This document shows positions 6,423-48,596 of a stretch of 64,000 nucleotides of DNA, piece after piece (positions within the stretch are counted from its first letter, which is position 1; each line of letters begins with the position of its first letter). Position numbers and translations under genes: made by a program. Origin of the DNA: an uncultured delta proteobacterium (lineage in GTDB: Bacteria; Desulfobacterota; Binatia; Binatales; Binataceae); the NCBI GenBank assembly GCA_963724765.1, contig CAVRVY010000001.1, forward strand, positions 320,001 through 384,000, written 5' to 3'. The notes below the pieces were generated by a model that ran no database searches, had not been told where the DNA came from, and saw only the letters and a list, made by a program, of their open reading frames with translations.

Positions 6423-8423
6423 ATGCGGTGCAAACAATCGTTTCAAGCGCTTATATGGCTATGTTTTTATCTTTTGCTATTGACCGGCAGCCGTCCCGCC
6501 TCAGCCGCGTGTTCGCAGGACTATTGGGTGTCTCCAAACGGCAACGACGATGGCACGGGCACTGTCGATGACCCATTTCTGACCCTGGATCACGCTAGGC
6601 AGGTCGTACGGCAGAACACGCGCAGAGGTCAATGCACCATCTATGTCAATGTCAAATCAGGGACCTACGCACTCACCACGCCCCTTATATTCGATTCGTC
6701 CGATTCCGGGTCTCCACAAGCAAAAGTAGTTTACAGGGCTGCCCCGGGTAATCTCTCCCCGGCGATTATTTCCGGGGGTATCCCTGTGGTAAATTTTACG
6801 TGCACCTCCGCCAACATCTGCACCAGCACCCTGGCCGATCTGCCTGCCGGAATAATGCCGCGTCAGTTCTACGCAAACGGCCAGCGGGCTATCCGCGCAC
6901 GCTCGAACTACGGTCAAGCCGTCAATCTCAATTATATTCGCGTATCAAATGGCTATACGCAGATCCTTCCTCAGTCTTTCAGCCATCCGGAGCTGATGGA
7001 GGCAGTTACGGTAACGCAATGGAAGATGATGCGGTGTCCTATCGCGAGCCTGTCCGGAAACACCCTCGTCGTGCAAAATCCATGTTGGGACAATGCCAAT
7101 TCCTACTCGAGCCCCGTAAACTTTCAGCTGCTCAGTTGGCTGGAAAATGCTCCGGAATTCGTGACAGTACCCAACATGTGGTATCTCGACCCCTATAGCC
7201 AACAATTAACCTATTACAATACCCGCTCTGGCAGCCCTCAAGGCGCTGTCTTGCCGGTACTGGAAAATCTGGTCGAACTGATAGGAACTCCCACCAAGCC
7301 GATAACAGATATATCTTTTAACGGACTGCAATTCTCTTATGCTACCTGGCTGGAACCCAATACAAACAACGGGTATGTAACCGACCAGAGCAGCTACATA
7401 TTGATGGGTAGTGGATATGAACCGAATACGATCGGTCACCAGCAGATTACCTATAAAACACTCGGCAATGTAACTCTTAGATATGCGCGTAATATTATTT
7501 TCAGGGGCAATACTTTCAGCCACCTGGGCGGTGTGGCTTTGGATCTCGACACCGGCAGCCAAAACAACATGATACTCAGGAATACCTTCACCGACATATC
7601 CTCAACTGCAATTCAGGTCGGCGGACTTTCTCCCATTGATGCTCGGCCTAACAATGCGCAGAAGACCAGCCACAACCTGGTGCTAAACAATACCGTCTCA
7701 TACACTGGCCGAGACTATTATGACTCAGCCGGAGTCTTCGTCGGCTTCACGACTGGCACTCAGATAATCCATAATACCATTAGCCATACTCCGTGGAGCA
7801 GCCTCGCCATCGGTTGGGGATGGGGACTGCTCGACGATCCGAGTTTTCCGGGGGTGCCGACTGCTGTTCCAGGAATGTGGGGCACATACAATACCCCGAC
7901 TATTGCCAGCAATAACGAGATCGTGAGCAATAAATTTGAGTATTTCCTGGAACAATTGTGGGACGGTGGGGCAATCTATACCAATGGTTCGCAAGGCCCG
8001 AACTTTGCCAAGGGTCTCCTGATTGAATTGAACGTCGCTGAAAACAAACGGCCGCGCGGAGGTGGCAATATCTATTACACTGACGGCGGGAGTCAATATG
8101 TAACGCTTCGGCAGAATGTGTCTCTCAACGATCCGGTCGGAGTTGCTGATTTTGGTCCTTGCTCAACCGGATCGTCGATACCAAACTACTGCGCCATCAC
8201 TGGGTTTCCGTATGGTTCCGATTTTGGCGGGTGTCTTCCGGTAGGAAATCTGACCTATACTGAAAATTATTTCCTCAACCCGATCGACTTTTATGGACCG
8301 CAGATCTGTGCAAACGATTATGTTCCGGCGTATCCGATCAATTTGACGATCCGGAACAACATTCAAACCATATCAGCAGACCAGGTCCCGGGTTGGATAC
8401 TTTCCCAGGCCGGCGTCAAATAA
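6423..8423 (+). CDS. Secreted right-handed parallel beta-helix (pectin-lyase-fold) protein
   Basis: Signal peptide; YWVSPNGND...PFLTLDHA, GTYAL, ISGG, RQFYANGQRAIRAR and DGGAIYT motifs; Asn-rich; visibly lower GC than its flanks. Confidence 0.8.
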   Translation: MRCKQSFQALIWLCFYLLLLTGSRPASAACSQDYWVSPNGNDDGTGTVDDPFLTLDHARQVVRQNTRRGQCTIYVNVKSGTYALTTPLIFDSSDSGSPQAKVVYRAAPGNLSPAIISGGIPVVNFTCTSANICTSTLADLPAGIMPRQFYANGQRAIRARSNYGQAVNLNYIRVSNGYTQILPQSFSHPELMEAVTVTQWKMMRCPIASLSGNTLVVQNPCWDNANSYSSPVNFQLLSWLENAPEFVTVPNMWYLDPYSQQLTYYNTRSGSPQGAVLPVLENLVELIGTPTKPITDISFNGLQFSYATWLEPNTNNGYVTDQSSYILMGSGYEPNTIGHQQITYKTLGNVTLRYARNIIFRGNTFSHLGGVALDLDTGSQNNMILRNTFTDISSTAIQVGGLSPIDARPNNAQKTSHNLVLNNTVSYTGRDYYDSAGVFVGFTTGTQIIHNTISHTPWSSLAIGWGWGLLDDPSFPGVPTAVPGMWGTYNTPTIASNNEIVSNKFEYFLEQLWDGGAIYTNGSQGPNFAKGLLIELNVAENKRPRGGGNIYYTDGGSQYVTLRQNVSLNDPVGVADFGPCSTGSSIPNYCAITGFPYGSDFGGCLPVGNLTYTENYFLNPIDFYGPQICANDYVPAYPINLTIRNNIQTISADQVPGWILSQAGVK

Positions 8424-8656
8424 AAGCATGCATTCAACCAGGTTGATTCGTTCGGACCACCGAAACGAGACATATCGTATCCTGGAGCGCCGTTAGAAGA
8501 AGATTGACGCGATCTGGCTCTTCCTTCGACCGTCTCACCGGTTAAATTCAGACCGGCGGTTCAGTTTCCTTGAGCGATTGCGTACCAAGATCTTCGACCG
8601 CGAACACGGAAATAGTAGCTGCGACTGAATAGCCCTGATACGTGTAATCCAACAGC

Positions 8657-10099
8657 TCAATGACCTGCTTCTATCAGGCGGACATCAGCCCGGGCGTCGA
8701 CACCCCCGCGGGCAGGCTGACCGAACCACGCCAGCGGCTGATGGAGCCGCGTCACTTCACCCACGATTATCAGTGCGGGCGCGGTCATCCTGCGTCCCGC
8801 CAGCACGCCCGGTAACGTTGCGGCGGTGGCCGTGACTACTTCCTGGGTGGCACGCGTTCCGTCTGCAATAAGCGCCGCGCCGGTCTCGGGCGGCAAGCCG
8901 TGATCGATGAGCTTGCGGCAGATCGATTCGGCCTCGAAGCGCGACATGTAAAAGACCAGTGTCTGGCCGGAGCGCGCGAGGGTTTCCCAGTCGGGCTCGC
9001 TCGCGCCGTTTTTTCCGTGGGCCGTCACCAGCACACATTGGGAGGAAAGGTCGCGATGGGTGAGCGGTATGCCAGCGTACGCGGCGCATCCGCTGGCCGC
9101 GGTGATCCCCGGCACCACTTGATAAGGGATTCCGGCGGCGGCGAGCGCCTCGAGCTCTTCGCCCATCCGGCCGAAGACGGAGGGATCGCCCCCTTTGAGC
9201 CGCAGCACGCGCTTACCCTCTCGCGCCATTGTGATCATCATCTCGTTGATCTCGGACTGGCTTAGTTGATGCTCACCGCATCGCTTGCCGGCGTCGAGCA
9301 CTTCGGCCTCGCGCCGGACCAGCGCGAGGATCTCAGCCGAGACCAGGCGATCGTGCAATACCACGTCGGCCTGCTGCATTAATTGCAGCGCGCGCAGGGT
9401 CAGCAGGCTCGGATCGCCTGGACCTGCGCCCACAATGTAGACTTCGCCCGCTGTTTGCGCGCTCGCGGCAGTGTTGCAGATCTCTTCGGCAAGCAGCCGC
9501 TCGGCGCCCGCCTCGTCACCGGCAAGCGCACGCGATGCGACCGATCCCGTGGCCACGCGCTCCCAGAACCGCCGCCGCGCCGCTGGATCGGTGATAGCCC
9601 GCGACACCGCCGTGCGCCAGCGGCCCATCAGCGCGGCAAGCCCGCCGAGCCGTGCCGGAAGGATCGCCTCGATCTTTGTCTTGACTGTCCGCGCAAGCAC
9701 GGGCGCCGCGCCGGAAGTGCCGATCGCGACTATCAGCGGCGAGCGATCGACTATCGCGGGCATGATGAAGCTGCACAGCTCGGGGTCGTCCACGACATTG
9801 ACCGGAATCGCGCGTTGGCGAGCCTCCTCGGCCACGCTCCGGTTGAGTTCGCGGTCATCGGTTGCCGCCACCACCAGGCGCGTTCCGTCGAGCTCTGAAC
9901 CATCGAACCCCCGCGCCGACGCCTCGAGCATCCCGCGGTTGGCCATCGCGCCGATCACGCCTCCAATTCGGCAGGCTACAACGCGGACGCGCGCGCCCGC
10001 GCCTACCAACTGCGCGGCCTTGCGCGCTGCGACGACGCCGCCACCGACCACCAGGCAGGGCGTGTCGTTTAGATCGACGAAGATAGGAAACCAGTCCAT
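8657..10099 (-). CDS. cysG: Siroheme synthase
   Basis: VVGGGVVAARK, VNVVDDPELCSF, VGAGPGDP, RLKGGDP and VPGITAA. Confidence 0.95.
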   Translation of the reverse strand: MDWFPIFVDLNDTPCLVVGGGVVAARKAAQLVGAGARVRVVACRIGGVIGAMANRGMLEASARGFDGSELDGTRLVVAATDDRELNRSVAEEARQRAIPVNVVDDPELCSFIMPAIVDRSPLIVAIGTSGAAPVLARTVKTKIEAILPARLGGLAALMGRWRTAVSRAITDPAARRRFWERVATGSVASRALAGDEAGAERLLAEEICNTAASAQTAGEVYIVGAGPGDPSLLTLRALQLMQQADVVLHDRLVSAEILALVRREAEVLDAGKRCGEHQLSQSEINEMMITMAREGKRVLRLKGGDPSVFGRMGEELEALAAAGIPYQVVPGITAASGCAAYAGIPLTHRDLSSQCVLVTAHGKNGASEPDWETLARSGQTLVFYMSRFEAESICRKLIDHGLPPETGAALIADGTRATQEVVTATAATLPGVLAGRRMTAPALIIVGEVTRLHQPLAWFGQPARGGVDARADVRLIEAGH

Positions 10100-19542: not shown

Positions 19543-20700
19543 TCACGCCGCCGAGGGATGCGCAACGTTGCTGCCGATTATTACCGCTTGCGCGACACCC
19601 GACAGCGAGAGTCCGTAGCGTTCGATCCTGTCGTACAGCTTCTTACGGGAGATTTTCAGCAGACGTGCCGCTTGCACCTTGTTTCCGCCCGTACGCTCCA
19701 GCGCTTTGGCGATTGCGTCGCGTTCGAATTCGGCATAGCTGCCGGGGCTCTGGATCGACGGGGGTTCGGACGCCGCTATTGTCGACGAGAGGATCGCGCG
19801 TGGCGCGACTCGCCAGGCGTTCACGATCCTGGTTGGCAGATCGTCGAGCGTGACGGTCGACGAGGCGCCGAACGTGAAAGCCGATTCGATCGTGTTGCTG
19901 AGCTCGCGGACGTTGCCCGGCCAATCGTACGCCTGCAAGGCCGACATCGCGTCGGGCTCGATTCCTTCGACAGATCTTGTGGCCTGGCTGCGCCCGTTCA
20001 ACAGCTTCAGGAAATGCCAGGCCAGCGCCCCGATATCGTCTGACCGGTCTCTCAGCGGAGGAATTTCCAGCACGTTCACCTGCAGGCGATAGTAAAGGTC
20101 GGCGCGCAATTGTCCGGTACGGGCGGCTTCGGCCGGATCGCGATTGGTCGACGCTACAATGCGGACGTCGATTGGGATCTCGTGAGTGGCGCCGACAGGT
20201 CTCACGGCTCGTTCCTGGATCGCACGCAGCAGCTTGGCCTGGAGATCCGGGCTCATCTCCGTAATTTCGTCCAAAAAGACCGTGCCGCCGTCCGCGGCGC
20301 GCAGCAGTCCCGGATGATCCGTGTTTGCACCGCTGAAGGCCCCGCGGCGATAGCCGAACAATTCGCTCTCGACCAGATCTTTCGGAATCGCGGCGCAGTT
20401 AAGTGGAATGAACGATTGCCGCTGCGAGCCACCCGCATGGATGGCGCGCGCCACCAACTCCTTGCCGGTGCCGCTCTCGCCGACAATCAGGACCGTCGAG
20501 CGGGTGGCGGCGACGGCCTCGATCCGGCGATACAGACGCCGCATCGCAGCGTTCGATCCAACCAGCCCGTGAAACGGCTCGGTTGCTTCCGCCCTGATTG
20601 GCCCGGCGCCAGCGCCACTGAAGACCATGGGGCCGGCGGAGAAATTCCCGTCAAACAGCGGTCGTCGGTCTTCTGCAGCCGAAATTGTGTTGATAGCCAT
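19543..20700 (-). CDS. Sigma54 enhancer-binding protein (AAA+ and Fis HTH) with no N-terminal sensor; start at 20700 or 20628
   Basis: GESGTGKE, ESELFG..GAFSGA, FLDEI, WPGNVREL and GGNKVQAARLL. Confidence 0.9.
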   Translation of the reverse strand: MAINTISAAEDRRPLFDGNFSAGPMVFSGAGAGPIRAEATEPFHGLVGSNAAMRRLYRRIEAVAATRSTVLIVGESGTGKELVARAIHAGGSQRQSFIPLNCAAIPKDLVESELFGYRRGAFSGANTDHPGLLRAADGGTVFLDEITEMSPDLQAKLLRAIQERAVRPVGATHEIPIDVRIVASTNRDPAEAARTGQLRADLYYRLQVNVLEIPPLRDRSDDIGALAWHFLKLLNGRSQATRSVEGIEPDAMSALQAYDWPGNVRELSNTIESAFTFGASSTVTLDDLPTRIVNAWRVAPRAILSSTIAASEPPSIQSPGSYAEFERDAIAKALERTGGNKVQAARLLKISRKKLYDRIERYGLSLSGVAQAVIIGSNVAHPSAA

Positions 20701-20713
20701 GCATCCCGAGGGA

Positions 20714-20728
20714 GCACACCGCGTGCCA
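20714..20728 (-). promoter_or_regulatory. Sigma54 -24/-12 promoter
   Basis: Minus strand reads TGGCACGCGGTGTGC (GG-N10-GC). Confidence 0.65.
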
Positions 20729-20899
20729 TATGTTGCCTTTCGACGCAGCTTGCACATTTCGCTACAGCAGCTCGAGAACATGGGGCATCGTTGTCCCACG
20801 TGGGGAATGAAGTCCGCACAACACGATTGTAAATGAACAATCAGGATGCGAACCTTCTGCCTCACTATGGCCGGGACGACTGAACATAAAGGACCGACT

Positions 20900-22162
20900 T
20901 TGCTGAGCGACCCAAAGAGCAGGGTGGTCCTCGCCTATTGCCTCGTCGCTTGCATATGGGTGCTCGTTTCCGAATTCCTCCTGCCGGCGCCCTACTCGCT
21001 GATAAACCGCCTCGTATTCGTCATGGTAACCGGAGCCGTGATGGCCTTGTTGCGTTGGCGTGGGCGGTCTGAAGTTCGCCAATACGCCGCGCAGCTACGA
21101 GAAAGCGATGTAATAGGGGGCGTCTATTTCGAGTCTGCCGGGCAAGGGATTCTGGTGGCGGCGGCCGACGGGAGGATACTACGCGCCAACGCCACCCTTG
21201 AGCAGATGTTTGGTTATGGGCACGGGGAACTCGAAGGGCGGCCGGTCGAAATCCTGGTGCCTAACCGCGTGCAAGCCAAGCACACGGCGAATCGCGAGAA
21301 CTACTTGAAGGCTCCGCGTTCGCGTCCGATGGGGATCGGGCTGGACCTTGCGGGACGGCGCAAGGATGGAAGCGAATTCCCGCTCGAGATCAGCCTCAAC
21401 TACGTCGCTCCAGAGCCCGGCAATCAGCTGGTCGTCTGCTTTGTCACGAATATCAGCGAACGCTTGGCGTTCGAGCGTCAGACAAGACAGGCCGAGACGC
21501 TGAACGCGCTCGGCGCTATCGCTGCCGGTATCGCTCATGACCTCAACAATCCATTGGCGATTATCTCCTCGCGCTCCGAACTGATGCTTTCGCTTGTGGA
21601 CACTGGAAACCCTGATCTGCGTCAGGACCTCGAAGTCCTGCGGCGCAACGCTGAGCGAGCGAGCCGCATCGCGACCGGCCTGTTGACGCTGGCGGCCCAG
21701 CGCTCCATCGAGCGTCAAGCCGTGAGCATCAATGATTTGGTCGAAGCGACCGTTCTTTTGATCGGCGGAGAATTTCGCAGATCCAATATCGAGGTCATCA
21801 CTTCGCTCGACCGCGATCTTCCAGCAGTTTTGGGCGATTCGACGGCGCTGCAGCGCGTGCTGATGAATCTGGTGATGAACGCGCGCGATGCGATGCCTTT
21901 GGGGGGCGAAATCCGCATTGTAAGCAGGCCCGCGCCGGACCAGGCCAGGATGCTGCAATTGTCCGTATCCGACACCGGCACCGGTATCCCCGCCGAGGTA
22001 TTACCCAAGCTGTTCGCCATCTTTTTCACCACCAAGGCGAGCGGAACGGGATTGGGGCTGTGGCTGGCGCATCGCACACTTCGCGAACATGGCGGCAAAA
22101 TTGAAGTCGAATCAGAACCGGGAAGGGGAACTAAATTTACTTTGACGCTACCGACGATGTAG
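20900..22162 (+). CDS. Membrane PAS sensor histidine kinase (NtrB/FixL-like)
   Basis: Two TM helices; PAS (FGY...RPMGIGLDLAGRRKDGSEFP); AHDLNNP, NARDA, DTGTG and GTGLGL. TTG start follows AAGGA. Confidence 0.9.
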   Translation: MLSDPKSRVVLAYCLVACIWVLVSEFLLPAPYSLINRLVFVMVTGAVMALLRWRGRSEVRQYAAQLRESDVIGGVYFESAGQGILVAAADGRILRANATLEQMFGYGHGELEGRPVEILVPNRVQAKHTANRENYLKAPRSRPMGIGLDLAGRRKDGSEFPLEISLNYVAPEPGNQLVVCFVTNISERLAFERQTRQAETLNALGAIAAGIAHDLNNPLAIISSRSELMLSLVDTGNPDLRQDLEVLRRNAERASRIATGLLTLAAQRSIERQAVSINDLVEATVLLIGGEFRRSNIEVITSLDRDLPAVLGDSTALQRVLMNLVMNARDAMPLGGEIRIVSRPAPDQARMLQLSVSDTGTGIPAEVLPKLFAIFFTTKASGTGLGLWLAHRTLREHGGKIEVESEPGRGTKFTLTLPTM

Positions 22163-31457: not shown

Positions 31458-32006
31458 ATGAATCAAAAGACAGAAATTGCGGTCTTTGGCGGCGGATGCT
31501 TCTGGTGCACGGAAGCGGTGTTTGAACGGCTCAAGGGCGTAGTCTCTGTGATGCCCGGGTATGCGGGCGGCAGCGTCGCAAATCCGACCTACGCACAGGT
31601 TTGCACCGGCGAAACCGGGCATGCCGAAGTTACCCGAGTCAAATATGATCCTGCCGAGATCTCCTACAATGACCTGCTGGTCGTGTTTTTCGCGACCCAC
31701 GATTCAACCTCGTTGAATCGGCAAGGAGCGGACGTCGGGACCGAGTACCGTTCGGTCGTCTTCTATACAACAGACGATCAAAGACGGGATGCGCAAGCAT
31801 TGATCAATCAGCTAAACAGTTCCGACCCGGCAGGCAAGCCGATTGTGACCGAAGTACTTCCGCTGAACGCGTTTTACGAGGCTGAAGACTATCATCAGGA
31901 ATACTATCGCAACAATTCGCTCGCGCCTTACTGCCAGATTGTCATCGATCCAAAGCTGCGCAAGCTGCATAAGCAATTCAGCGCGTTACTTAAATCGTCG
32001 ATATGA
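31458..32006 (+). CDS. msrA: Peptide-methionine (S)-S-oxide reductase
   Basis: GGGCFWC, TGHAEV, NRQGAD and AEDYHQ. Confidence 0.96.
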   Translation: MNQKTEIAVFGGGCFWCTEAVFERLKGVVSVMPGYAGGSVANPTYAQVCTGETGHAEVTRVKYDPAEISYNDLLVVFFATHDSTSLNRQGADVGTEYRSVVFYTTDDQRRDAQALINQLNSSDPAGKPIVTEVLPLNAFYEAEDYHQEYYRNNSLAPYCQIVIDPKLRKLHKQFSALLKSSI

Positions 32007-32366
32007 ATGCGTGAAACGAAGCAGCCAAGGCCGCGGCCACGCGTTTCTCAACCGACTGCTCATCCCGGCGAAGGCCAATTTCCACTGCGATAAGGAACAG
32101 GACAAAGGCGGCCGCCTGTGAACCACCATCCCGCTCGGGCGTGAAGGTTGCCGAACAGAAGAAAGCAGGATGGACCTCAAGCGGTGACAGCCTATCTCTG
32201 AACTGACGCTCGAAACGCTGTCGAGACGTTGCATTTGACTGGAGCGGTGTGCCGGGCGAAATATGTTAGTACATGTTGGCAAAGACTTCTGGGTGTCCGG
32301 GCTCTAGCTGGTTAGCGCGATTTGTCGCAGTCACGGCAGCGCTGTCGAAACGAGGTGTCGCGTCCG

Positions 32367-33434
32367 ATGGACGAAAACTCCGGCGTCGCCGACGAACTTA
32401 GAAGTGTGGCTGAGGCAATTGCCCAGTCGGCAGTCGCCCGGGATTACGACCGGCGGCCCGCACTGCTCGCCAAATATGGAGAGCGGGGCAGAGCGATGTT
32501 TCTCCAGGACGCCCGGTTTCACCAGTCCTATCTAGCCGACGCGATCAGCTTCGGCCGCCCGTCCATATTCAAGGATTATCTCGGATGGGTGAGCGCAGTG
32601 CTTTCGGCGCGTGGCGTAGCGTCTGAAGATCTGATCGAAAACCTGAAGTGCGTGCGCGAGGCGCTCGTTGAGACGCTTTCGCATGAGAGCCTGGCCGTGG
32701 TGCTCGAAGTTTTCGATGCGGGACTTGCCGGCGCCGGCGGCGCGGCAGGCGCGAGCGCGGATCAATCGGACCAGGCGCTGCCCGCGGACGGGCTTGCGAA
32801 GCGCTACCTCGACTTTTTGCTGCGCGGCGAACGGCAGGCGGCGCTCGATCTGGTGCAGGATGCGATCCGCTCCGGAACCGGCATCAGGGAAATCTGGCTG
32901 CGCGTGTTCCAGGACGCGCAAAACGAGCTCGGCCGCCTGTGGCAGTACAACAAGATAAGCATCGCCCAGGAGCACTATTGCACCGCCGCGACCCAGATGA
33001 TCATGTCTCTTCTCTATAGTCACGTTTTCTCCGCGCCGCGCAGCGGCCGCGTCCTGGTGACGGCGTGCGCGCCCGGCGAGATCCATGAGCTCGGGATGAG
33101 GATGGTTGCCGACTTCTTCGAGATGGACGGGTGGGACACTTATCATCTCGGCGCCAACATGCAGGCCGCGGCCCTGGTCGATTTCGTCGCGCAACGCCGG
33201 CCCGATCTGCTCGGGCTCTCCGCGACGATGACCTTTCATCTCGACCCGGTGGCCGCGATCGTTCGCGCGCTGCGCGCAAACCAGGAAACCCGTGCTGTAA
33301 GAATCATGGTGGGCGGCCATGCTTTCAACCTTGAACCCGAACTCTGGCGCGATATCGGTGCGGACGGGTATGCGTGCGATGCCGAGAGCGCGTTGATCGC
33401 GGCCGAACGCGTGGCGGCCGCGGCGAGGGGGTGA
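32367..33434 (+). CDS. Cobalamin-binding protein: N-terminal helical globin-like domain plus CarH-type B12 domain
   Basis: W-x9-EH ([12 protein letters not shown]), GEIHELG, YHLGAN, GLSAT and MVGG. Confidence 0.85.
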
Positions 33435-34519
33435 GCGGGATGGAGGCTCGCCATCGCGCAGGAGTACTGCTCCGATGCACCCGGGACGGAGTAGTCATTT
33501 CAATAGTCAATGACGGCATTGGCCTCTCAGGTTCATTGAAAATTGGTAAGCCATTCTACTACTGCGCCTACGTTGACAATCAGGAACGGGCGAAGGCGCT
33601 GATCGGCGACCTGGGGAGTGCCGACGCCGTTTACGAGATGCCAATTTCCGTTGACTTGAACGGTCGCCCGAGGTTGCTGACATTTTCCGGGGCTGTCGTC
33701 GGTGACGAACTGATATTGGTGGGCTGCGCCGTCGAAGGCTCCACGAAGGATATTTACGAGGATCTGATCCGCATCAACAACGAGGAAACCAACGATTTGC
33801 GCACGGCGCTGAAGAGTCTGGAGCAGCGCAGCCGGCATGCCGCGATCGTCGCGCATGATCTCCGCAATTCCATCGCTGCCATCACCTCGAGCGTCGAGCT
33901 GTTGCTCGAAGACCGCGGCACCCTGGAACCGGACCAGCTGCAGTTCATCTCCATCATCGAGCGCACCAGCCGCTCGGCGCTCGCGTTGGTGGCCGATCTG
34001 CTGGATCTCACGCTGATCGAAACGGGACGGCTCGAGCTGAAAGTGAAATCGATCGATCTCGGCGCGCTGATCAACAAGAACGTGGAAGCCAACCGGCTGT
34101 TAGCGCGCCGCAAGAACATCCGGGTTGAAACCGAAATCGTCCCCGGGCTATCGGCGGTGAACGCCGATCCCTCGCGTGTGGAACAGGTACTTACGAATTT
34201 CATCAGCAACGCGATCAAGTATTCGGAGCCCGGCACCAACGTGACCGTGCGCGCCTCCGAGGCCGGCGGCGAGGTGCTGGTGGAAGTTTGCGACCAGGGC
34301 CAGGGAATTCCGTCAGAGGAAATAGGTAAACTGTTCCGGTTTTACCAGAAGACCAGCGTCCGGCCGACCGGCGGCGAGCAGAGCACCGGGCTTGGACTCG
34401 CGATCGCACGCCAGATCGTCGAAGCTCACGGCGGCAAGGTTGGCGTGGCGTCCGAAGTAGGGCGGGGCTCGACTTTCCATTTTACGCTCCCGATCAGTCG
34501 CGCCGCCTCCGCCGTCTGA
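33431..34519 (+). CDS. Cytoplasmic sensor histidine kinase
   Basis: GTGA overlap with the B12 gene; AHDLRN, NAIKYS, DQGQG and STGLGL; no TM segment. Confidence 0.9.
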
Positions 34520-34548: not shown

Positions 34549-34713
34549 ATGATCGTTGCCGTCTCGAGGTTCAAGGTCGGCGCCCAAGCAAGCATCTCAG
34601 GTGATGGCGCGGCATCCACGCGCCCATTGCGTTTCAATTCCGCGTTGTTTGCGTATCGGGATCATCTTTTGGGACAATTCCAACATCTGCGGCATCTGAC
34701 GGGATCGGTATGA
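34549..34713 (+). pseudogene. Truncated antibiotic-biosynthesis-monooxygenase-like (IsdG/ABM) gene start
   Basis: GGAGGAG RBS, then MIVAVSRFKV, after which the frame looks non-coding (54 aa in total). The family call rests on 10 residues. Confidence 0.45.
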
Positions 34714-35757: not shown

Positions 35758-36717
35758 ATGAACGAACCAAGCCATCACTTCGTCGAGACCAACGGCATTC
35801 GGATGCACTACGTGGAGGCCGGCAAGGGGCCGTTGGTCATTCTGTGCCATGGGTTTCCGGAATCGTGGTATTCGTGGCGCCATCAGATAGCGGCGCTCGC
35901 CGAGGCGGGCTTCCGCGTCGTAGCGCCCGACCAGCGCGGCTATGGTCAGACCGATCGCCCCGAGGCGGTCGGCGCATACAGCATCTTGCACATGGCCGGC
36001 GATATCGTCGGGATGGTTAACGCGCTCGGGCAGCGCTCGGCCGCGATCGTCGGGCACGACTGGGGCGCGCCCGTGGCCTGGTTCTCGGCTCAGTTGCGCC
36101 CGGATCTCTTCAGCGCCGTGGGGTTATTGAGCGTTCCGTACATCCCGCGCGGGCCGCTGCGCCCCAGTGCGATCGCCAAGGCGGTGTTCGGCGACAAAAT
36201 TTTCTACCAGGAATATTTCCAGCAGGAGGGCACGGCCGAGCGCGAGCTCGAGCGCGACGTGCGCGCGAGCCTGCTGGCGACATTCTATTCCCTCTCGGGC
36301 GACGCCGCGCCGAACGAACGATGGCGTTACGCGTTCGGCCGCGACGAGAATTTCCTCGATAGCGTCGTAGTACCTCGCAGCCTGCCGCCATGGCTCAGCG
36401 AGGCGGACCTCGAGTTCTTCACCGCCGAGTTCAAGCGCACCGGGTTTCGCGGCGGGCTCAACTGGTATCGCAATATCGATCGCACCTGGGAGCTGACCGG
36501 GTTTCTCGACGGTGCGAAGCTGGGTCAGCCGGCGCTGTTCGTCGCTGGTGACAAGGACGCGGTGGTCGAATTCTACGCCGACGCGTACCGGGCGCTCGAA
36601 ATCAACGCGCCGAACCTGGCGAAGAAGGTTCTGCTCGCCGGTGCGGGCCATTGGGTACAACAGGAGCGTCCAGCCGAGGTGAACCGGTTACTAATCGAGT
36701 TCCTGCGCTCAGTCTGA
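35758..36717 (+). CDS. Epoxide hydrolase-like alpha/beta hydrolase
   Basis: HGFPE, GHDWGA, LNWYRN and GHWVQQE. Confidence 0.9.
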   Translation: MNEPSHHFVETNGIRMHYVEAGKGPLVILCHGFPESWYSWRHQIAALAEAGFRVVAPDQRGYGQTDRPEAVGAYSILHMAGDIVGMVNALGQRSAAIVGHDWGAPVAWFSAQLRPDLFSAVGLLSVPYIPRGPLRPSAIAKAVFGDKIFYQEYFQQEGTAERELERDVRASLLATFYSLSGDAAPNERWRYAFGRDENFLDSVVVPRSLPPWLSEADLEFFTAEFKRTGFRGGLNWYRNIDRTWELTGFLDGAKLGQPALFVAGDKDAVVEFYADAYRALEINAPNLAKKVLLAGAGHWVQQERPAEVNRLLIEFLRSV

Positions 36718-38608
36718 CGCGCGCGCTCCTCAAGCCTGCCGATGTACCATTCGCTGAATGTACAGGGCGGCCGAGAAAGCTTCGCAAAACGTCGGGATGG
36801 ACCGGTTTCACCAGATGTTCATCGCAGCCCGCCTCTTTGGACAGGCGGCGATGCGCTTCATGCCCATACCCACTTAATGCGACGATCATCAGGTCCGCGC
36901 GTTTAGTCTGGCTTCGCATCCGACGAGCCACTTCAAAGCCGTCCACATCGGGCAGGCCGATATCGAGAAAGACTATGTCCGGCTCGAAGGTGCGCAGCAT
37001 CTCGAGCGCCATCGCCCCGTCTTGCGCGATGCTGACAGCGTGACCGTCGCGCGCGAGAACCATCTTCAAAGACTTGGCGATATCGTCGTTATCCTCGACC
37101 AGAAGAATACGCCGGGTCGGCCCGCTCGACTGCCTGCTCGTCTTCTTCGGCGCGTTGTCCATCGAAGGCCTTGGTATGATGGGCAACCGAACCGTGAATT
37201 CACTGCCCTTGCCGGGTCCTCCGCTCACCGCCTCGACGGTACCGCCATGCAGGTTCGCCAGATTTCGCACCAGCGTCAATCCGAGGCCGAGGCCCCTTGT
37301 GGCGGGTTTCGACGACCCATTGAGCTGCGTATAGAGATCGAAGATGCTTTCGAGTCGATCCTTCGGGATGCCAATTCCGTTGTCGTGAACCCTGATGCAA
37401 ACGTCTCCCTCCGCGCATTGGGCCGCGATCGAGATTTCACCGTCTTTGGGCGTGTACTTCGCCGCATTGTCCAGGAGGTTCGACAACAGTTGAACCAGTC
37501 GCACCGGGTCGCCGTAGATATGAACCGGTTCTTGCGGAATTCGAACGGACAGCCGGTGCTGGCGACGCTCGAACTGAGCGTGCGTAGCCTCGATAGCCTG
37601 GTCGACGATCATTCTGAGCTCGATCGGCTCCTTGTGGACTTCCAACTCACCGCGACCGATGCGGGACAGGTCCATCAGATCATCGACCATCCGCGATAGG
37701 TGGCGGGCCTGGCGTCCCACGATGTCGACAGCTTGCAAGAGATCGGCCTGCAAAAGATCAGCCTGCGGAAGATCGGTTCGAGGGAGATCGGTTCGAGGGA
37801 GATCGGTTCGAGGGAGATCGGTTCGAGGGAGATCGGTTCGAGGGAGATCGGTTCGAGGGAGATCGGTTCGAGGAAGATCGGTTCGAGGAAGATCGACATC
37901 GTACTCGCTGATCTTTCGCGCCATCTGATGTGCGCTTATGATCGCAGCCAGCGGGCTCCTCAATTCATGAGCGATCATAGCCAAAAACTCATCCTTATGC
38001 CGGCTCGACTCCGCCGCCAGTTCGCACGCTCGCCACAATTGCCAGCCCGCTGAAGCGAACTGTGCGAGTGTGCCCATGACGCGCTCGTCCTCCCGATCGA
38101 ATTTCCGCTCGAAGTTGTTGGCTACGATCCAGACTGTTCCAACCGGTTTGCCATGGTCGTGAAAGGGTATGAGAAGCACCTCCACGAAACGCGGCTCAGT
38201 CAGGAGCGCTGGAAAACAGCGATCCGGCAGATGCATCAGCTGAGCGGTGTTCTGATCGATGCAAACCCCGCAGGGACTGGCGTCACGAGGCATCGTGGAA
38301 CCTCGATAGGAGGCGAAGACCCCAGCCAGAGCCTCCCAGCGAAAGACGTCGCCCTCCAAGATGCTGATCCCGACAGTGTCGGCCTGGCAGAGATCGACCG
38401 CCGTCTCGACCAATCGCTGGAGCATGTTGCGCGGGTTCGCGACCATTTCGGCGGCGAGCATCGCCATCGCCCGATGCTCGGCCTCATAGTCGGGTGTCCG
38501 CTGAGGGCGATCGCACAGCGCGGAGCGGATGTCGACCTCTTCGAAAGTCGCTGTGGGTCTGGCCAAATCCGTCAGGCGAAGGGGGGAAGTGTCGTCGGTG
38601 GTGTTCAT
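36602..38608 (-). CDS. Hybrid sensor kinase (GAF-HisKA-HATPase-REC)
   Basis: AHELRSP, NAAKYT, DNGIG, GLGLGL, LLVEDN and FLDIGLP. The 3' tail overlaps the hydrolase gene by 116 bp. Confidence 0.9.
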   Translation of the reverse strand: MNTTDDTSPLRLTDLARPTATFEEVDIRSALCDRPQRTPDYEAEHRAMAMLAAEMVANPRNMLQRLVETAVDLCQADTVGISILEGDVFRWEALAGVFASYRGSTMPRDASPCGVCIDQNTAQLMHLPDRCFPALLTEPRFVEVLLIPFHDHGKPVGTVWIVANNFERKFDREDERVMGTLAQFASAGWQLWRACELAAESSRHKDEFLAMIAHELRSPLAAIISAHQMARKISEYDVDLPRTDLPRTDLPRTDLPRTDLPRTDLPRTDLPRTDLPRTDLPQADLLQADLLQAVDIVGRQARHLSRMVDDLMDLSRIGRGELEVHKEPIELRMIVDQAIEATHAQFERRQHRLSVRIPQEPVHIYGDPVRLVQLLSNLLDNAAKYTPKDGEISIAAQCAEGDVCIRVHDNGIGIPKDRLESIFDLYTQLNGSSKPATRGLGLGLTLVRNLANLHGGTVEAVSGGPGKGSEFTVRLPIIPRPSMDNAPKKTSRQSSGPTRRILLVEDNDDIAKSLKMVLARDGHAVSIAQDGAMALEMLRTFEPDIVFLDIGLPDVDGFEVARRMRSQTKRADLMIVALSGYGHEAHRRLSKEAGCDEHLVKPVHPDVLRSFLGRPVHSANGTSAGLRSARVRLSAGTRLVTGSPRLDAPVVPNGPHRRAEPSSPGSAR
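36701..36724 (+). repeat. Left copy of a 24-bp imperfect direct repeat (partner at 39014-39037)
   Basis: TCCTGCGCTCAGTCTGACGCGCGC versus TCCTGCGCTCGATCTGACGGGCGC, 21/24 identical. Confidence 0.7.
37730..37894 (-). repeat. In-frame 15-bp tandem repeat, 11 units
   Basis: Encodes (DLPRT)x8-DLPQA-DLLQA-DLLQA. Confidence 0.95.
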
Positions 38609-46562: not shown

Positions 46563-48383
46563 TCAAGTCTGAGGATCGTCGCGCGAGTTCTGCTCGCTCG
46601 CGTGGCGAGAATTCCCGTTGGTGCCGGCTGACGATGCCTGCGTCCAGCGCTTCAGCGTGGCGTCAAGGTCGTCCAGGTCTACCGGTTTGGTAATGTAACC
46701 GTCCATCCCGGCGGCCTGGCACTTCTCACGTGCGCCGCTTAAGGCGTGAGCAGTCATCGCGATGACGATGGTCCGGTGTGCCGAGCCTGCCTCGCGCCGG
46801 CGAATTTCAGCGGTCGCCTCGTAACCATCCATCCCCGGCATCTGACAATCCATCAGGACGATCGGATAAGGCTTGAGCGCAAGCGCGTCGAGCGCCTCCT
46901 GACCGTCGTTCACCACGTCGGCCGCGAAGCCCAGCACGTTAAGTTGACTTTGCGCGAGTTTCTGATTGACCGGGTTATCTTCGGCCACGAGGACCGTAAT
47001 CGCTGGCGGCTTGCCGTTTCCGCCGACGGAACTGCCGGCGTGCGCAAGGTCCTCCGCTTTTTGGCGGATGGTCTTGGCCAGGTGCGCGGTGAAGCGGAAG
47101 GTCGAGCCGCAGCGCAACTCGCTCTCCACCTCGATTTGACCGCCCATCTCGCGGACCAAGTGTGCCGCGATCGCGAGGCCCAATCCCGAGCCGCCGTAGT
47201 TGCGGCTGGTCGAGCCGTTAACTTGCGTGAACGGCTGGAAGATTGCGCTTTGCTGATCGGCCGCGATTCCGATGCCGGTATCGCTTACCTCGAACGACAA
47301 AGTTACCTCGTTCGCCGACTCGTCGAGTTGGCCGGCACGCATCACGATTTCGCCCTGGTTGGAAAACTTGATCGCGTTGCTGACCAGGTTGCTCAGGATT
47401 TGCTCGAGACGGTGTGAGTCCCCCGCCACGAGATGCGGCAGCCCCTGCTCGAGTTCGAGCGTCAACTTGATGCCGCGCTTTTGCGCCTGCCGGACGAACT
47501 GCGCCGCCACACGTTCCATCGCATCGTGAGGGTCAAACGTATCTTCCTCGAGGACGAACTGGCCCTGGGACAGGTTGGAGAAGTCCAGCACGTCGTCCAC
47601 GATCACGCATAAGGCTTGGCCGCTCGCACGCACCGCCTCGGCGTACTCGCGCTGCTCCGCGGTGAGTCCGGCGTCCAGCAACAGCCGGGTCATCCCAACG
47701 ATGCCATTGAGCGGCGTGAGAATTTCATGGCTCATGTTGTCGAGGAACTCGGAGCGCAGCCGTGCGGCCTCCAGCGCCAGGTCGCGCGCGCGAGCCATCT
47801 CTTCTTCGGCGAGGTGGCGCAGGGTTACGTCGCGGTAGACAACCAGCCCGCCCCTCAAGCTGCCGTCCTGATCGATCGCCGGCCGGGCCGAGGCTTCGAG
47901 CCACAGATCGTGAGCCAGTGCAGGGGCGCTCAAAAGCACCAGCATGTCATCGATCGATTCGCCGCGCACCGCTCGCGCCAGCGGCCATTGCTCAATCGGC
48001 ATAGGTGGGGCGCCGGCGGCAGTCCGCAGTGCGAACCCGCCGGCCATCTGATCGAGGACGGAATGCCCGCAATCCGTCCCGGCGATTGTACTGGCGGCTC
48101 GACTGACGTGCGTGAATCGAAGGTCAAGGTCGCAAACGATCACCCCGTCCGCCACAGTGTCGAAGATCGACTGCATCAGCTGCGACTGGCGGCGCAACTC
48201 CTCGGTTTGCTCGAGGACCTGGCGCGCCAGCCGCTTATTGACCTCATGCAGCTCGGCCCCGGCCGCGCCCTGATTTGCGATGAAGGTGTCGCGCCGTCGT
48301 AAAGCCCATTCGCCTACGACGAAGACGAAACAAACCGCCACAATTGCCGTCACTCCGCCCACCGCAATCACCACCATCTCCAT
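46563..48383 (-). CDS. Membrane hybrid sensor kinase (TM-PAS-HisKA-HATPase-REC)
   Basis: MSHEILTP, NAIKFS, DTGIG, GSGLGL, AEDNPVN and LMDCQMP. Confidence 0.9.
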   Translation of the reverse strand: MEMVVIAVGGVTAIVAVCFVFVVGEWALRRRDTFIANQGAAGAELHEVNKRLARQVLEQTEELRRQSQLMQSIFDTVADGVIVCDLDLRFTHVSRAASTIAGTDCGHSVLDQMAGGFALRTAAGAPPMPIEQWPLARAVRGESIDDMLVLLSAPALAHDLWLEASARPAIDQDGSLRGGLVVYRDVTLRHLAEEEMARARDLALEAARLRSEFLDNMSHEILTPLNGIVGMTRLLLDAGLTAEQREYAEAVRASGQALCVIVDDVLDFSNLSQGQFVLEEDTFDPHDAMERVAAQFVRQAQKRGIKLTLELEQGLPHLVAGDSHRLEQILSNLVSNAIKFSNQGEIVMRAGQLDESANEVTLSFEVSDTGIGIAADQQSAIFQPFTQVNGSTSRNYGGSGLGLAIAAHLVREMGGQIEVESELRCGSTFRFTAHLAKTIRQKAEDLAHAGSSVGGNGKPPAITVLVAEDNPVNQKLAQSQLNVLGFAADVVNDGQEALDALALKPYPIVLMDCQMPGMDGYEATAEIRRREAGSAHRTIVIAMTAHALSGAREKCQAAGMDGYITKPVDLDDLDATLKRWTQASSAGTNGNSRHASEQNSRDDPQT

Positions 48384-48434
48384 CCGGTACGTCGCGCGTT
48401 TGTCACAAAGGTTACCAATGGCTCGATGGAATGA

Positions 48435-48450
48435 GCATCGGACGTGCCAA
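48435..48450 (-). promoter_or_regulatory. Sigma54 -24/-12 promoter
   Basis: Minus strand reads TTGGCACGTCCGATGC. Confidence 0.65.
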
Positions 48451-48596
48451 TGCGTGACAGAGCAGTCTGGTGGCGGCGATCGTCTACGCAACTAGGAGGC
48501 GCGAAAGCGAGAATGATACAGGGTGTCTCGTTCGCGAGACCGCCTGCGTCCCGAAATGAGAGCCGAGGCGATCCATTGCCGCCGCGAGCTCGGGAA

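Follow-up and report, generated by a model that had tools for sequence, protein, structure and literature searches.

B12 photoreceptors are known mainly as repressors such as CarH and, in work dating from 2024, as photocobilins, which regulate an enzyme to which they are fused. The stretch of DNA analysed here (the window, 64 kb of contig CAVRVY010000001.1 from an uncultured delta proteobacterium of the Binataceae) carries on its forward strand a gene for a B12-type sensor (32367..33434), followed by a gene for a soluble histidine kinase (33440..34519). The pair belongs to the already described photoglobin/photocobilin family and is not a new kind of system. On balance, the two genes probably encode a cytoplasmic light-sensing module of that family, in which the sensor acts on the adjacent kinase.

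Photoglobins were described in silico by Schneider et al. 2021 (PMC8717448) as globins placed before or after B12 domains and encoded in operons with two-component genes. In that text, none of the photoglobin fusions had yet been studied experimentally, and 'ABM monooxygenase, hemeoxygenase' were named among the operon neighbours without further detail. Zhang et al. 2024 (PMC10979010) proved B12 and biliverdin (BV) binding and light control for two photocobilins with a domain order opposite to that of the window sensor, and listed, from predicted structures only, a group with a C-terminal adenosylcobalamin (AdoCbl) domain. The photocobilin SasPcob was a dimer in the dark and a monomer in the light, and stand-alone photocobilins had a light-dependent effect on the activity of an isolated diguanylate cyclase, a precedent for action in trans (PMC10979010).

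The window was compared with 80 related loci (labelled L001 and so on). The nearest relative, L001, has 86.5% DNA identity to the window over the operon and served as the reference for the choice of start codons, for synteny and for the ratio of nonsynonymous to synonymous substitution rates (dN/dS). Residues in the sensor were tallied over the 120 best database hits, and invariant columns were also taken from an alignment of 50 sequences. The sensor family is large, with 1148 database proteins at E <= 0.001 among 8000 candidates scored, and in species-representative genomes at least 555 of 600 candidate stretches belong to it. The carriers include Acidobacteriota, Chloroflexota, Planctomycetota, Bacteroidota, Thiotrichaceae, metagenome-assembled genomes (MAGs) of Desulfobacterota type and one Methanotrichaceae archaeon. 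The closest named relative of the window sensor, with 77% identity, is from Candidatus Binataceae.

The open reading frame (ORF) of the sensor spans 32322..33434 on the forward strand, and the ATG at 32367 gives a protein of 355 amino acids, the same length as P0001 and the closest relatives. ORF analysis, Pfam, a PDB sequence search and an AlphaFold2 model together defined the order photoglobin, linker, four-helix bundle and Rossmann domain. The model (predicted local distance difference test, pLDDT, 90.1; predicted template modelling score, pTM, 0.85) consisted of six helices in residues 2-123, a disordered linker in residues 125-134, a helical bundle in residues 143-220 and a Rossmann fold in residues 229-354. 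The photoglobin domain, a phycobiliprotein-like globin, corresponds to residues 1-123 (32367..32735) and was identified from its six helices, a sequence profile, PF00502 and residue tallies. The B12-binding_2 four-helix bundle, residues 143-220 (32793..33026), was matched by Pfam at 1.4e-16 over residues 144-216 and holds G189-x-x-W192 and E202-H203, while the Rossmann-type B12-binding domain, residues 229-354 (33051..33428), was matched at 2.1e-24 over residues 230-343 and holds G237-E-I-H240-E-L-G243.

An earlier note on this DNA had described the first protein as lacking a DNA-binding domain and carrying in its place a helical domain of about 110 residues. Both statements held: no helix-turn-helix or MerR domain was found in the sensor by the Pfam scan at E <= 0.1, and the N-terminus is the globin, its six helices modelled with pLDDT > 90. 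The best PDB sequence matches of the sensor were the photocobilins SasPcob (8J2W/8J2X, 1.6e-28) and AbPcob (8J2Y, 3.7e-21). A second, weak stretch of alignment placed residues 36-96 of the sensor on the C-terminal globin of SasPcob, so that the domain order is permuted relative to SasPcob and AbPcob. Because of this permutation, a Foldseek search with the whole sensor model was blind to the globin; only the B12 half was aligned (about 200 columns), and the N-domain was therefore tested by a sequence profile against PDB and Pfam. Through the B12 half, this search retrieved the cobalamin-binding domain (CBD) of CtMerR, the photocobilins and CarH. Relative to L001, both genes of the window evolve under purifying selection (dN/dS 0.20 for the sensor and 0.23 for the kinase), the neighbouring genes giving values of 0.05-0.16.

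The CarH/LitR signature that had been read in the first protein was present, with W192-x9-E202-H203 in the bundle and E238-x-H240-x-x-G243 in the Rossmann domain. W192, E202, H203, H240 and G243 were invariant in the 50-sequence alignment, and the tallies gave W192 in 120, E202 in 120, H203 in 120 and H240 in 119 of the best hits, position 238 being Glu in 77 and Asp in 43. H240 is the predicted lower axial ligand of cobalamin. The signature of light-responsive cobalamin-binding domains, as given in the SignatureFinder text (PMC11796333), comprises GxxW, EH, GxxH and GxxxP; three of these four elements were found in the window sensor (G189-W192, E202-H203 and G237-H240), and the fourth reads G262-A-N-M-Q266. 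The module is homologous to that of CarH/LitR (5C8A-5C8F and 3WHP in the PDB), with which the sensor shares the residues of the adenosyl pocket. However, unlike CarH/LitR, the window sensor has no MerR-type DNA-binding domain and its output would pass through a separate kinase rather than through release of DNA. The residue after Trp192 is Gln193, and the PDB alignment showed that SasPcob also has Gln there. In CarH the corresponding residue is the His that forms the bis-His light state. The window sensor is likely to be an AdoCbl-type photoreceptor, and of the functional claims made here we hold this one with the greatest confidence.

The earlier note had also likened the N-terminal domain to phycobiliproteins. 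A profile built from the N-domains of 75 relatives matched allophycocyanin at 3.8e-8, the C-terminal domain of SasPcob at 9.9e-6 and the globin of AbPcob at 1.8e-4 in the PDB. In all, 138 PDB sequences were matched at E <= 1, and the 60 matches listed were all phycobiliproteins, engineered derivatives of them or photocobilins. PF00502 matched 66 of the 75 relatives and, with 25.0 bits against a cut-off of 22.2, the window domain taken alone; on the full-length sensor the match covered residues 7-118 with 21.6 bits, just below the cut-off. The resemblance is thus far beyond chance. The domain shares the globin fold by homology, and the chromophore-pocket motif, with allophycocyanin, phycocyanin and the rest of PF00502. 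In contrast to these proteins, the window sensor is non-cyanobacterial, lacks the chromophore Cys, has no alpha/beta antenna partner and is fused to a B12 module, features of a sensor and not of an antenna.

The sequence F45-L-Q-D48 occupies the place of the CXQD/CXRD chromophore motif, and F45 (32499-32501) aligns in the profile with the chromophore Cys of allophycocyanin, just as had been proposed from the motif AMFLQD. An alignment of homologs at this FLQD position gave Cys in 73 of the best hits, Tyr in 26, Ser in 16, Trp in 1 and Phe in 1; the clade of the window sensor (>= 66% identity) carries Tyr. The tally agrees with the CXQD motif given for photoglobins in the text of Rockwell et al. 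2023 (PMC10151467), and the window protein is without its Cys. In the text of PMC8717448 the Cys position is not conserved, with Cys, Ser or Thr at the distal position. [quoted passage not shown] By an offset of one residue, L79 would match the hydrophobic helix-4 residue L80 of the photoglobin reference.

In SasPcob the main BV and corrin contacts are Asp270 and Trp296, while Trp61, Glu71-His72 and His108 lie in the B12 site (PMC10979010). The pairwise alignment with SasPcob has a numbering offset of +6 and was anchored by Trp61, Glu71, His72 and His108. Without gaps in this region, it placed Asp270 on D48 and Trp296 on W74 of the window sensor. D48 and W74 were present in all 117 ungapped sequences among the best hits; Y71 and W74 were invariant, and D48, Y71, W74, L56 and H52 were invariant or nearly so throughout the family, the window included. 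According to PMC10979010, photocobilins have no Cys for bilin attachment, and AbPcob, in which BV binding and occupancy are poor, has His instead of the Asp270 of SasPcob; the window sensor retains the Asp. SasPcob itself has Thr at the position of F45 in the PDB alignment. Since SasPcob also has no Cys, F45 is compatible with non-covalent binding of a bilin. The chances that the window sensor binds a bilin appear about even.

The second gene encodes a histidine kinase of 359 amino acids if it starts at ATG 33440, or of 362 if it starts at GTG 33431, as judged from the ORF, Pfam and the comparison with L001. It had been suggested that the stop codon of the sensor overlaps the kinase start. The GTG at 33431-33433 does overlap the TGA at 33432-33434, but the likelier start is the ATG, 5 nt past the stop: L001 has no overlapping GTG and its kinase begins at the equivalent ATG, and for this reason the start was taken as 33440, which is probably correct. 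A Shine-Dalgarno-like GAGGGGG (33424..33430), whose function in initiation is presumed, lies inside the 3' end of the sensor gene, 9 nt before this ATG. The kinase core (33824..34495) consists of HisKA (residues 132-199, Pfam 4.5e-12) and HATPase_c (residues 246-355, 1.8e-30), these residues and those of the coiled coil being numbered from GTG 33431. The H-box HDLRN and the G boxes DQGQG and GLGLAI were located. The assignment as a kinase without transmembrane segments stood, the sole 19-residue stretch with a Kyte-Doolittle value > 1.6 (from residue 80) being modelled as beta-strands of a PAS fold. The input region had been called short; there is indeed an N-terminal input segment, but it is in fact a complete PAS-fold domain by AlphaFold2 and Foldseek.

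This partner domain (33461..33814), designated kin_N, was delimited by the hit of a hidden Markov model (HMM), the AlphaFold2 model and Foldseek. Its core was modelled with pLDDT of about 88-95, and Foldseek matched it to bacterial and ARNT/HIF PAS domains with E of 6e-6 and TM scores of 0.7-0.8. No PAS or other Pfam model matched in the 35 members scanned, Pfam was also blank over the first 130 residues of the kinase, and no sequence relative was found in the PDB. A look-up of the PAS part in the ESM Atlas gave mostly unnamed clusters with some PAS leads at 0.90, to be taken as leads only. By its modelled fold, kin_N is a divergent PAS-fold family of its own. A signalling helix or coiled coil (residues 105-139, 33743..33847) with the motif NNE-x-x-N-x-LR connects the PAS domain to the dimerization and histidine phosphotransfer (DHp) part of the core; its model pLDDT was 54-61 and its columns are conserved. 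Most partner kinases, of about 400 amino acids, have this coiled coil twice in tandem behind the PAS domain, the second HMM match falling at about 135-165, whereas the kinases of the window and L001 have one copy only and are about 40 residues shorter.

An HMM built from the N-terminal part of the kinase (its first 130 residues) was searched in the 80 loci and the window. In 65 of the 80 loci, as in the window, there is exactly one full copy of kin_N, directly downstream of the sensor and on the same strand, and none elsewhere in those loci. In 26 of 64 kin_N partner genes the first in-frame start lies 4 nt upstream of the end of the sensor stop codon; across all the downstream ORFs called, the 4-nt overlap is ATGA in 26 of 29 cases. 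Relatives of kin_N numbered 1116 proteins at E <= 1e-10 among 1.84 billion representatives. The domain was N-terminal in nearly all of the 150 best matches, 105 of which had a kinase core. Within the family, the Cys of the first strand is conserved in 62 of 66 members, and no pattern of co-variation was seen between sensor position 45 and the PAS Cys or Trp.

The outputs attached to kin_N vary. A HisKA kinase follows it in 49 loci, GGDEF in L041, L050, L052 and L067, further PAS domains and a kinase in L030 and L077, a kinase-REC-Hpt arrangement in L064 and HisKA_2 in the archaeal L056. Six loci, all of Bacteroidota and four of them Adhaeribacter isolates (L028, L034, L042, L047, L058 and L078), encode a stand-alone kin_N protein of 164-178 amino acids, PAS and coiled coil with no Pfam match, right after the sensor and with an ABM gene upstream. 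Such a combination, one PAS domain with differing outputs, is what an adaptor with a single constant input would look like. The sensor can also be joined to its output in one chain, directly to kinase cores in L018, L043 and L079, and the protein database contains 11 long sensor forms, one of which, P0130, runs sensor, kin_N, kinase. In the archaeal copy of the pair, in L056 (2645-3908) from a Methanotrichaceae archaeon MAG, kin_N is joined to HisKA_2 positions 1-27 only, and what remains of HisKA_2 lies with HATPase_c in the next ORF; this archaeal kinase is thus split or frameshifted.

The earlier note had arrived at a photocobilin-like sensor that has no DNA-binding domain and acts in trans on a kinase. 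The photocobilin matches in the PDB, the globin, D48 and W74, the pairing in 65 of 80 loci and the fusions all agree with that proposal. The sensor is likely to control the adjacent kinase through the PAS domain. Somewhat less securely, kin_N is probably a docking module that would let one B12/bilin sensor drive varied effectors.

ABM-domain ORFs were found just upstream of five sensors when the flanking ORFs were scanned, and an HMM built from four of these ORFs was searched in the 80 loci. A gene of about 100 codons on the same strand, ending 20-160 nt before the sensor, was detected in 48 of them; in L013 the ABM gene is on the opposite strand and in L001 it lies downstream of the kinase. 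ABM gene and kin_N occur together in 40 loci. The ABM profile matched Thermus TT1380 (4.8e-16), Bacillus HmoB (2.6e-13), IsdI (1.7e-11), IsdG (3.4e-10) and MhuD (2.7e-10), and NCBIfam returned only HmuQ, IsdI and heme-oxygenase models, all under their cut-offs. The family has an invariant Trp and an invariant His, together with an invariant Ser that aligns with an Asn of HmoB and TT1380. In IsdG this Asn is presumably catalytic, as part of an Asn/Trp/His triad. The canonical heme oxygenase PF01126 was absent from 199 flanking ORFs of 150-330 amino acids (150 at E <= 1e-8 and 49 at 1e-10). Within the family, the ABM gene likely supplies a heme-derived linear tetrapyrrole.

In the window only a remnant of this IsdG/HmuQ-like gene was found, a 54-codon ORF at 34549..34713 on the forward strand, recognized from a blastn synteny break, its translation and the DNA alignment. 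Positions 34549-34584 match the intact L001 gene in its ribosome-binding site and initial 12 codons, and the sequence beyond is unrelated. Where L001 has about 990 nt (8212-9200) with the remainder of the ABM gene and a DUF992 gene, the window has about 128 nt of unrelated sequence (34584-34711). No Pfam match was obtained in the remnant. Because only 12 homologous codons remain, downstream of the kinase, the window cassette has lost the enzyme gene.

Bacteriophytochrome operons of the bphO-bphP type combine a heme oxygenase gene with a PAS-GAF-PHY photoreceptor that has a histidine-kinase output. The wider sensor family shares with them the logic of the order heme-degrading gene, bilin photoreceptor, histidine-kinase output. 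However, the folds of the sensors are unrelated, the enzyme is an ABM protein of IsdG type and no canonical heme oxygenase, the kinase is a protein apart from the sensor, and the enzyme gene of the window is truncated. AppA-PpsR and AerR-CrtJ also consist of a B12-fold sensor without an output domain of its own that acts on a separate regulator, and searches with the B12 module brought up AppA and AerR. Their partners are transcription factors and their ligands heme or hydroxocobalamin, whereas the window sensor is paired with a PAS-kinase and, apart from the Pro of GxxxP, retains the AdoCbl signature. The closest likeness is to the photocobilins SasPcob and AbDPcob, which have in common with the window sensor the CarH-type bundle and Rossmann domain, W-x9-EH, E/DxH, the globin and the lack of a Cys. 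In the text of PMC10979010 the stand-alone form was proposed to act on partner proteins, as is proposed here. The differences are the permuted order, with the globin first and B12 last, the identity of about 30% in the B12 part, and the partner, a PAS-histidine kinase instead of a fused diguanylate cyclase or STAS/SpoIIE neighbours.

The dedicated PAS partner, the IsdG-like reading of the ABM gene and the counts given above were not singled out in the text of PMC8717448, although its Figs 4-5 may show them. More generally, a dedicated PAS partner family, its modular outputs and an IsdG-like cassette gene were not found in print, in searches of text; figures or supplements may show them. Full-text searches, with figures and supplements outside their scope, found no sensor-kinase pair or PAS partner characterised in print, and no full-text literature was found that joins IsdG, B12-binding and bilin.

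The observed domain identities, motif conservation, gene pairing and fusions allow a mechanism to be proposed, in which we infer the binding of both chromophores, the contact of sensor and PAS domain, the direction of the response to light and the output. The sensor would bind AdoCbl in its C-terminal CarH-type module, with H240 as the lower ligand and W192, E202 and H203 holding the adenosyl group. The N-terminal globin would, probably non-covalently, bind a heme-derived linear tetrapyrrole, with D48 on the pyrrole nitrogens and W74 against the corrin. Light would then cleave the Co-C bond and change the bundle and the oligomeric state, as in SasPcob. This change would be sensed by the adjacent soluble kinase via its dedicated N-terminal PAS domain and be passed through the coiled coil to the HisKA/HATPase core, where it would set the level of autophosphorylation, and the phosphoryl group would go to a response regulator encoded elsewhere. 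A bolder version makes kin_N a dedicated 'photocobilin receiver' PAS family within a self-sufficient three-gene cassette (IsdG-like heme oxygenase, photocobilin and PAS effector) that drives kinases, diguanylate cyclases or stand-alone adaptors, its near-invariant Cys joining the signalling chemistry so that light makes a covalent or coordinate link between sensor and effector. This version is speculative and we consider it unlikely. As pure conjecture, the Cys of kin_N may ligate the cobalt opened by loss of the adenosyl group, or attack the bilin in trans.

Several observations weigh against reading the window pair as a light-controlled sensor and kinase. The place of the Pro in GxxxP is taken by Gln266 (33162-33164): of the 120 best hits, 118 have Pro and one has Arg, and Gln is confined to the window; Phe45 was likewise found only in the window among these hits. 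The PAS domain differs from its family in several conserved columns; Met replaces a Trp shared by 56 of 66 family members, and Leu a Phe shared by 61 of 66. Of the local heme-degrading ABM gene only 12 homologous codons are left, and a scan of 53 ORFs of the 64-kb window gave neither a canonical heme oxygenase nor an ABM domain. The truncated ABM gene, F45 and Q266 may mark relaxed function or partial decay of the window copy. No response-regulator gene adjoins the pair, in keeping with what the earlier note had said of the operon: none was adjacent among the ORFs and Pfam scans of the window. In about a quarter of the 80 loci, counted by eye from coordinates, the partner gene is followed by or fused to a receiver domain, which is the case in neither the window nor L001; the nearest in the window are in the hybrid kinases at 36602-38608 (opposite strand) and 46566-48491. 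Since 15 of the 80 loci are without kin_N, this domain is not obligatory, and neighbourhood and fusions argue for a functional link, not for physical contact. Literature searches found no experiments on this domain order or on any sensor-kinase pair.

These points bear unequally on the alternative explanations. The main rival is a B12-only light sensor, in which the globin of the Tyr/Phe clade is a structural cap over the corrin edge and light from UV to green is sensed through AdoCbl alone. The replacement of the CXQD Cys by Tyr in the clade and by Phe in the window would fit it, as would the absence of a heme oxygenase domain among the window ORFs scanned, an ABM gene that is divergent in the clade (33% identity to the first sequence of alignment A4) and truncated in the window, and the example of AbPcob, a photocobilin with weak BV occupancy (PMC10979010). 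However, D48, Y71, W74, L56 and H52 are kept, also in the window; SasPcob, with Thr and no Cys, still binds BV via Asp270 and Trp296; the weak binder AbPcob has His for the Asp that the window retains; and the rest of the genome may hold a heme oxygenase gene. We regard the B12-only explanation as unlikely, though the most serious of the alternatives. It is also conceivable, if distinctly less so, that the module does not sense light and instead reports tetrapyrrole or redox status (the form of cobalamin, or the availability of heme or bilin) to the kinase, in the manner of the AppA SCHIC domain or AerR. Both of these turned up as sequence or fold relatives of the sensor's B12 module, heme sensing would also suit a family cassette with a gene for a heme-degrading enzyme, and the closest named relative is from Candidatus Binataceae, with no evidence for a light-exposed lifestyle of the host. 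Against this, W-x9-EH, GxxW and GxxH are invariant in the family and, in the text of PMC11796333, separate light-responsive CBDs from other B12 domains, and the closest solved relatives (photocobilins, CtMerR and CarH) are proven photoreceptors.

The sensor and kinase might also be mere neighbours, the PAS domain sensing a small ligand of its own and the sensor acting on another target or on itself. PAS domains commonly bind ligands, the near-invariant Cys could line a ligand pocket, and besides the 15 loci without kin_N some sensors adjoin other genes. The restriction of kin_N to the position directly after the sensor in 65 of 80 loci, in many phyla, with the two genes often sharing 4 nt and the outputs varying, together with the sensor-kin_N-kinase fusion P0130 and the direct sensor-kinase fusions, makes such independence very improbable. 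The least probable explanation, which was rejected, is a corrinoid methyl-carrier of a methyltransferase system. It is suggested by automatic names of relatives ('methanogenic corrinoid protein MtbC1') and by weak NCBIfam corrinoid-protein matches of 58 bits; all such matches are far under their cut-offs of 215-370, no methyltransferase gene was found beside the sensor in the loci or in the window scans, and a methyl carrier would not be expected to have the globin domain, the W-x9-EH motif or a kinase partner.

If the pair is indeed a photoglobin/photocobilin-type module, it bears on how a stand-alone photocobilin relays its signal. The 80 relatives show a recurrent and compact answer, a soluble effector that opens with one PAS-fold domain, is usually translationally linked to the sensor and often has an ABM gene ahead that could make the bilin. 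The sensor-kinase pair offers a defined test case for light-controlled phosphorylation and possibly a green/red-responsive two-component switch for optogenetics, and there are cultured carriers among the loci, for example Adhaeribacter strains and Desulfoferrobacter suflitae. The value of the window itself lies mostly in annotation, since the automatic names 'MerR family light-induced regulator' and 'corrinoid protein MtbC1' are misleading.

Upstream of the sensor, an msrA gene was identified by Pfam at 31458-32006 on the forward strand, 360 nt from the sensor. Its position had suggested a connection with photo-oxidative stress, which was not borne out: msrA adjoins the sensor in only one of the 80 loci, L001, at a spacing of about 1.5 kb, and in none of the other 79, and it was therefore rejected as a functional partner. 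No Rfam family, riboswitch or other RNA, was found at gathering thresholds in the whole window, and no tRNAs were found. A terminator-like hairpin at 34606-34624 was discounted, being one of 5 such sites where 2.7 +/- 1.6 are expected.

The window contains other signalling and metabolic genes. The hybrid GAF-HisKA-HATPase-REC kinase at 36602-38608 on the reverse strand has its HisKA domain broken just past the H-box by a 15-nt tandem repeat (37770-37895) of 8.4 copies with 99% matches, which encodes DLPRT pentapeptide units. Pfam recognized in this kinase only positions 2-29 of HisKA before the repeat, together with a Pentapeptide-repeat match, and the alignment with L001 breaks at the repeat. 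A sigma-54 activator whose first 100 residues show no recognised receiver domain lies head to head with a PAS-HisKA kinase at 19546-22159, with an overlap of about 20 nt, and the two possibly form a separate two-component pair. Between 8660 and 19420 there is a sulfate-assimilation cluster that appears unrelated to the sensor-kinase pair and encodes a CysG-type siroheme synthase (8660-10099, reverse strand), PAPS reductase, sulfite reductase and a CysT/W/A-type ABC transporter.

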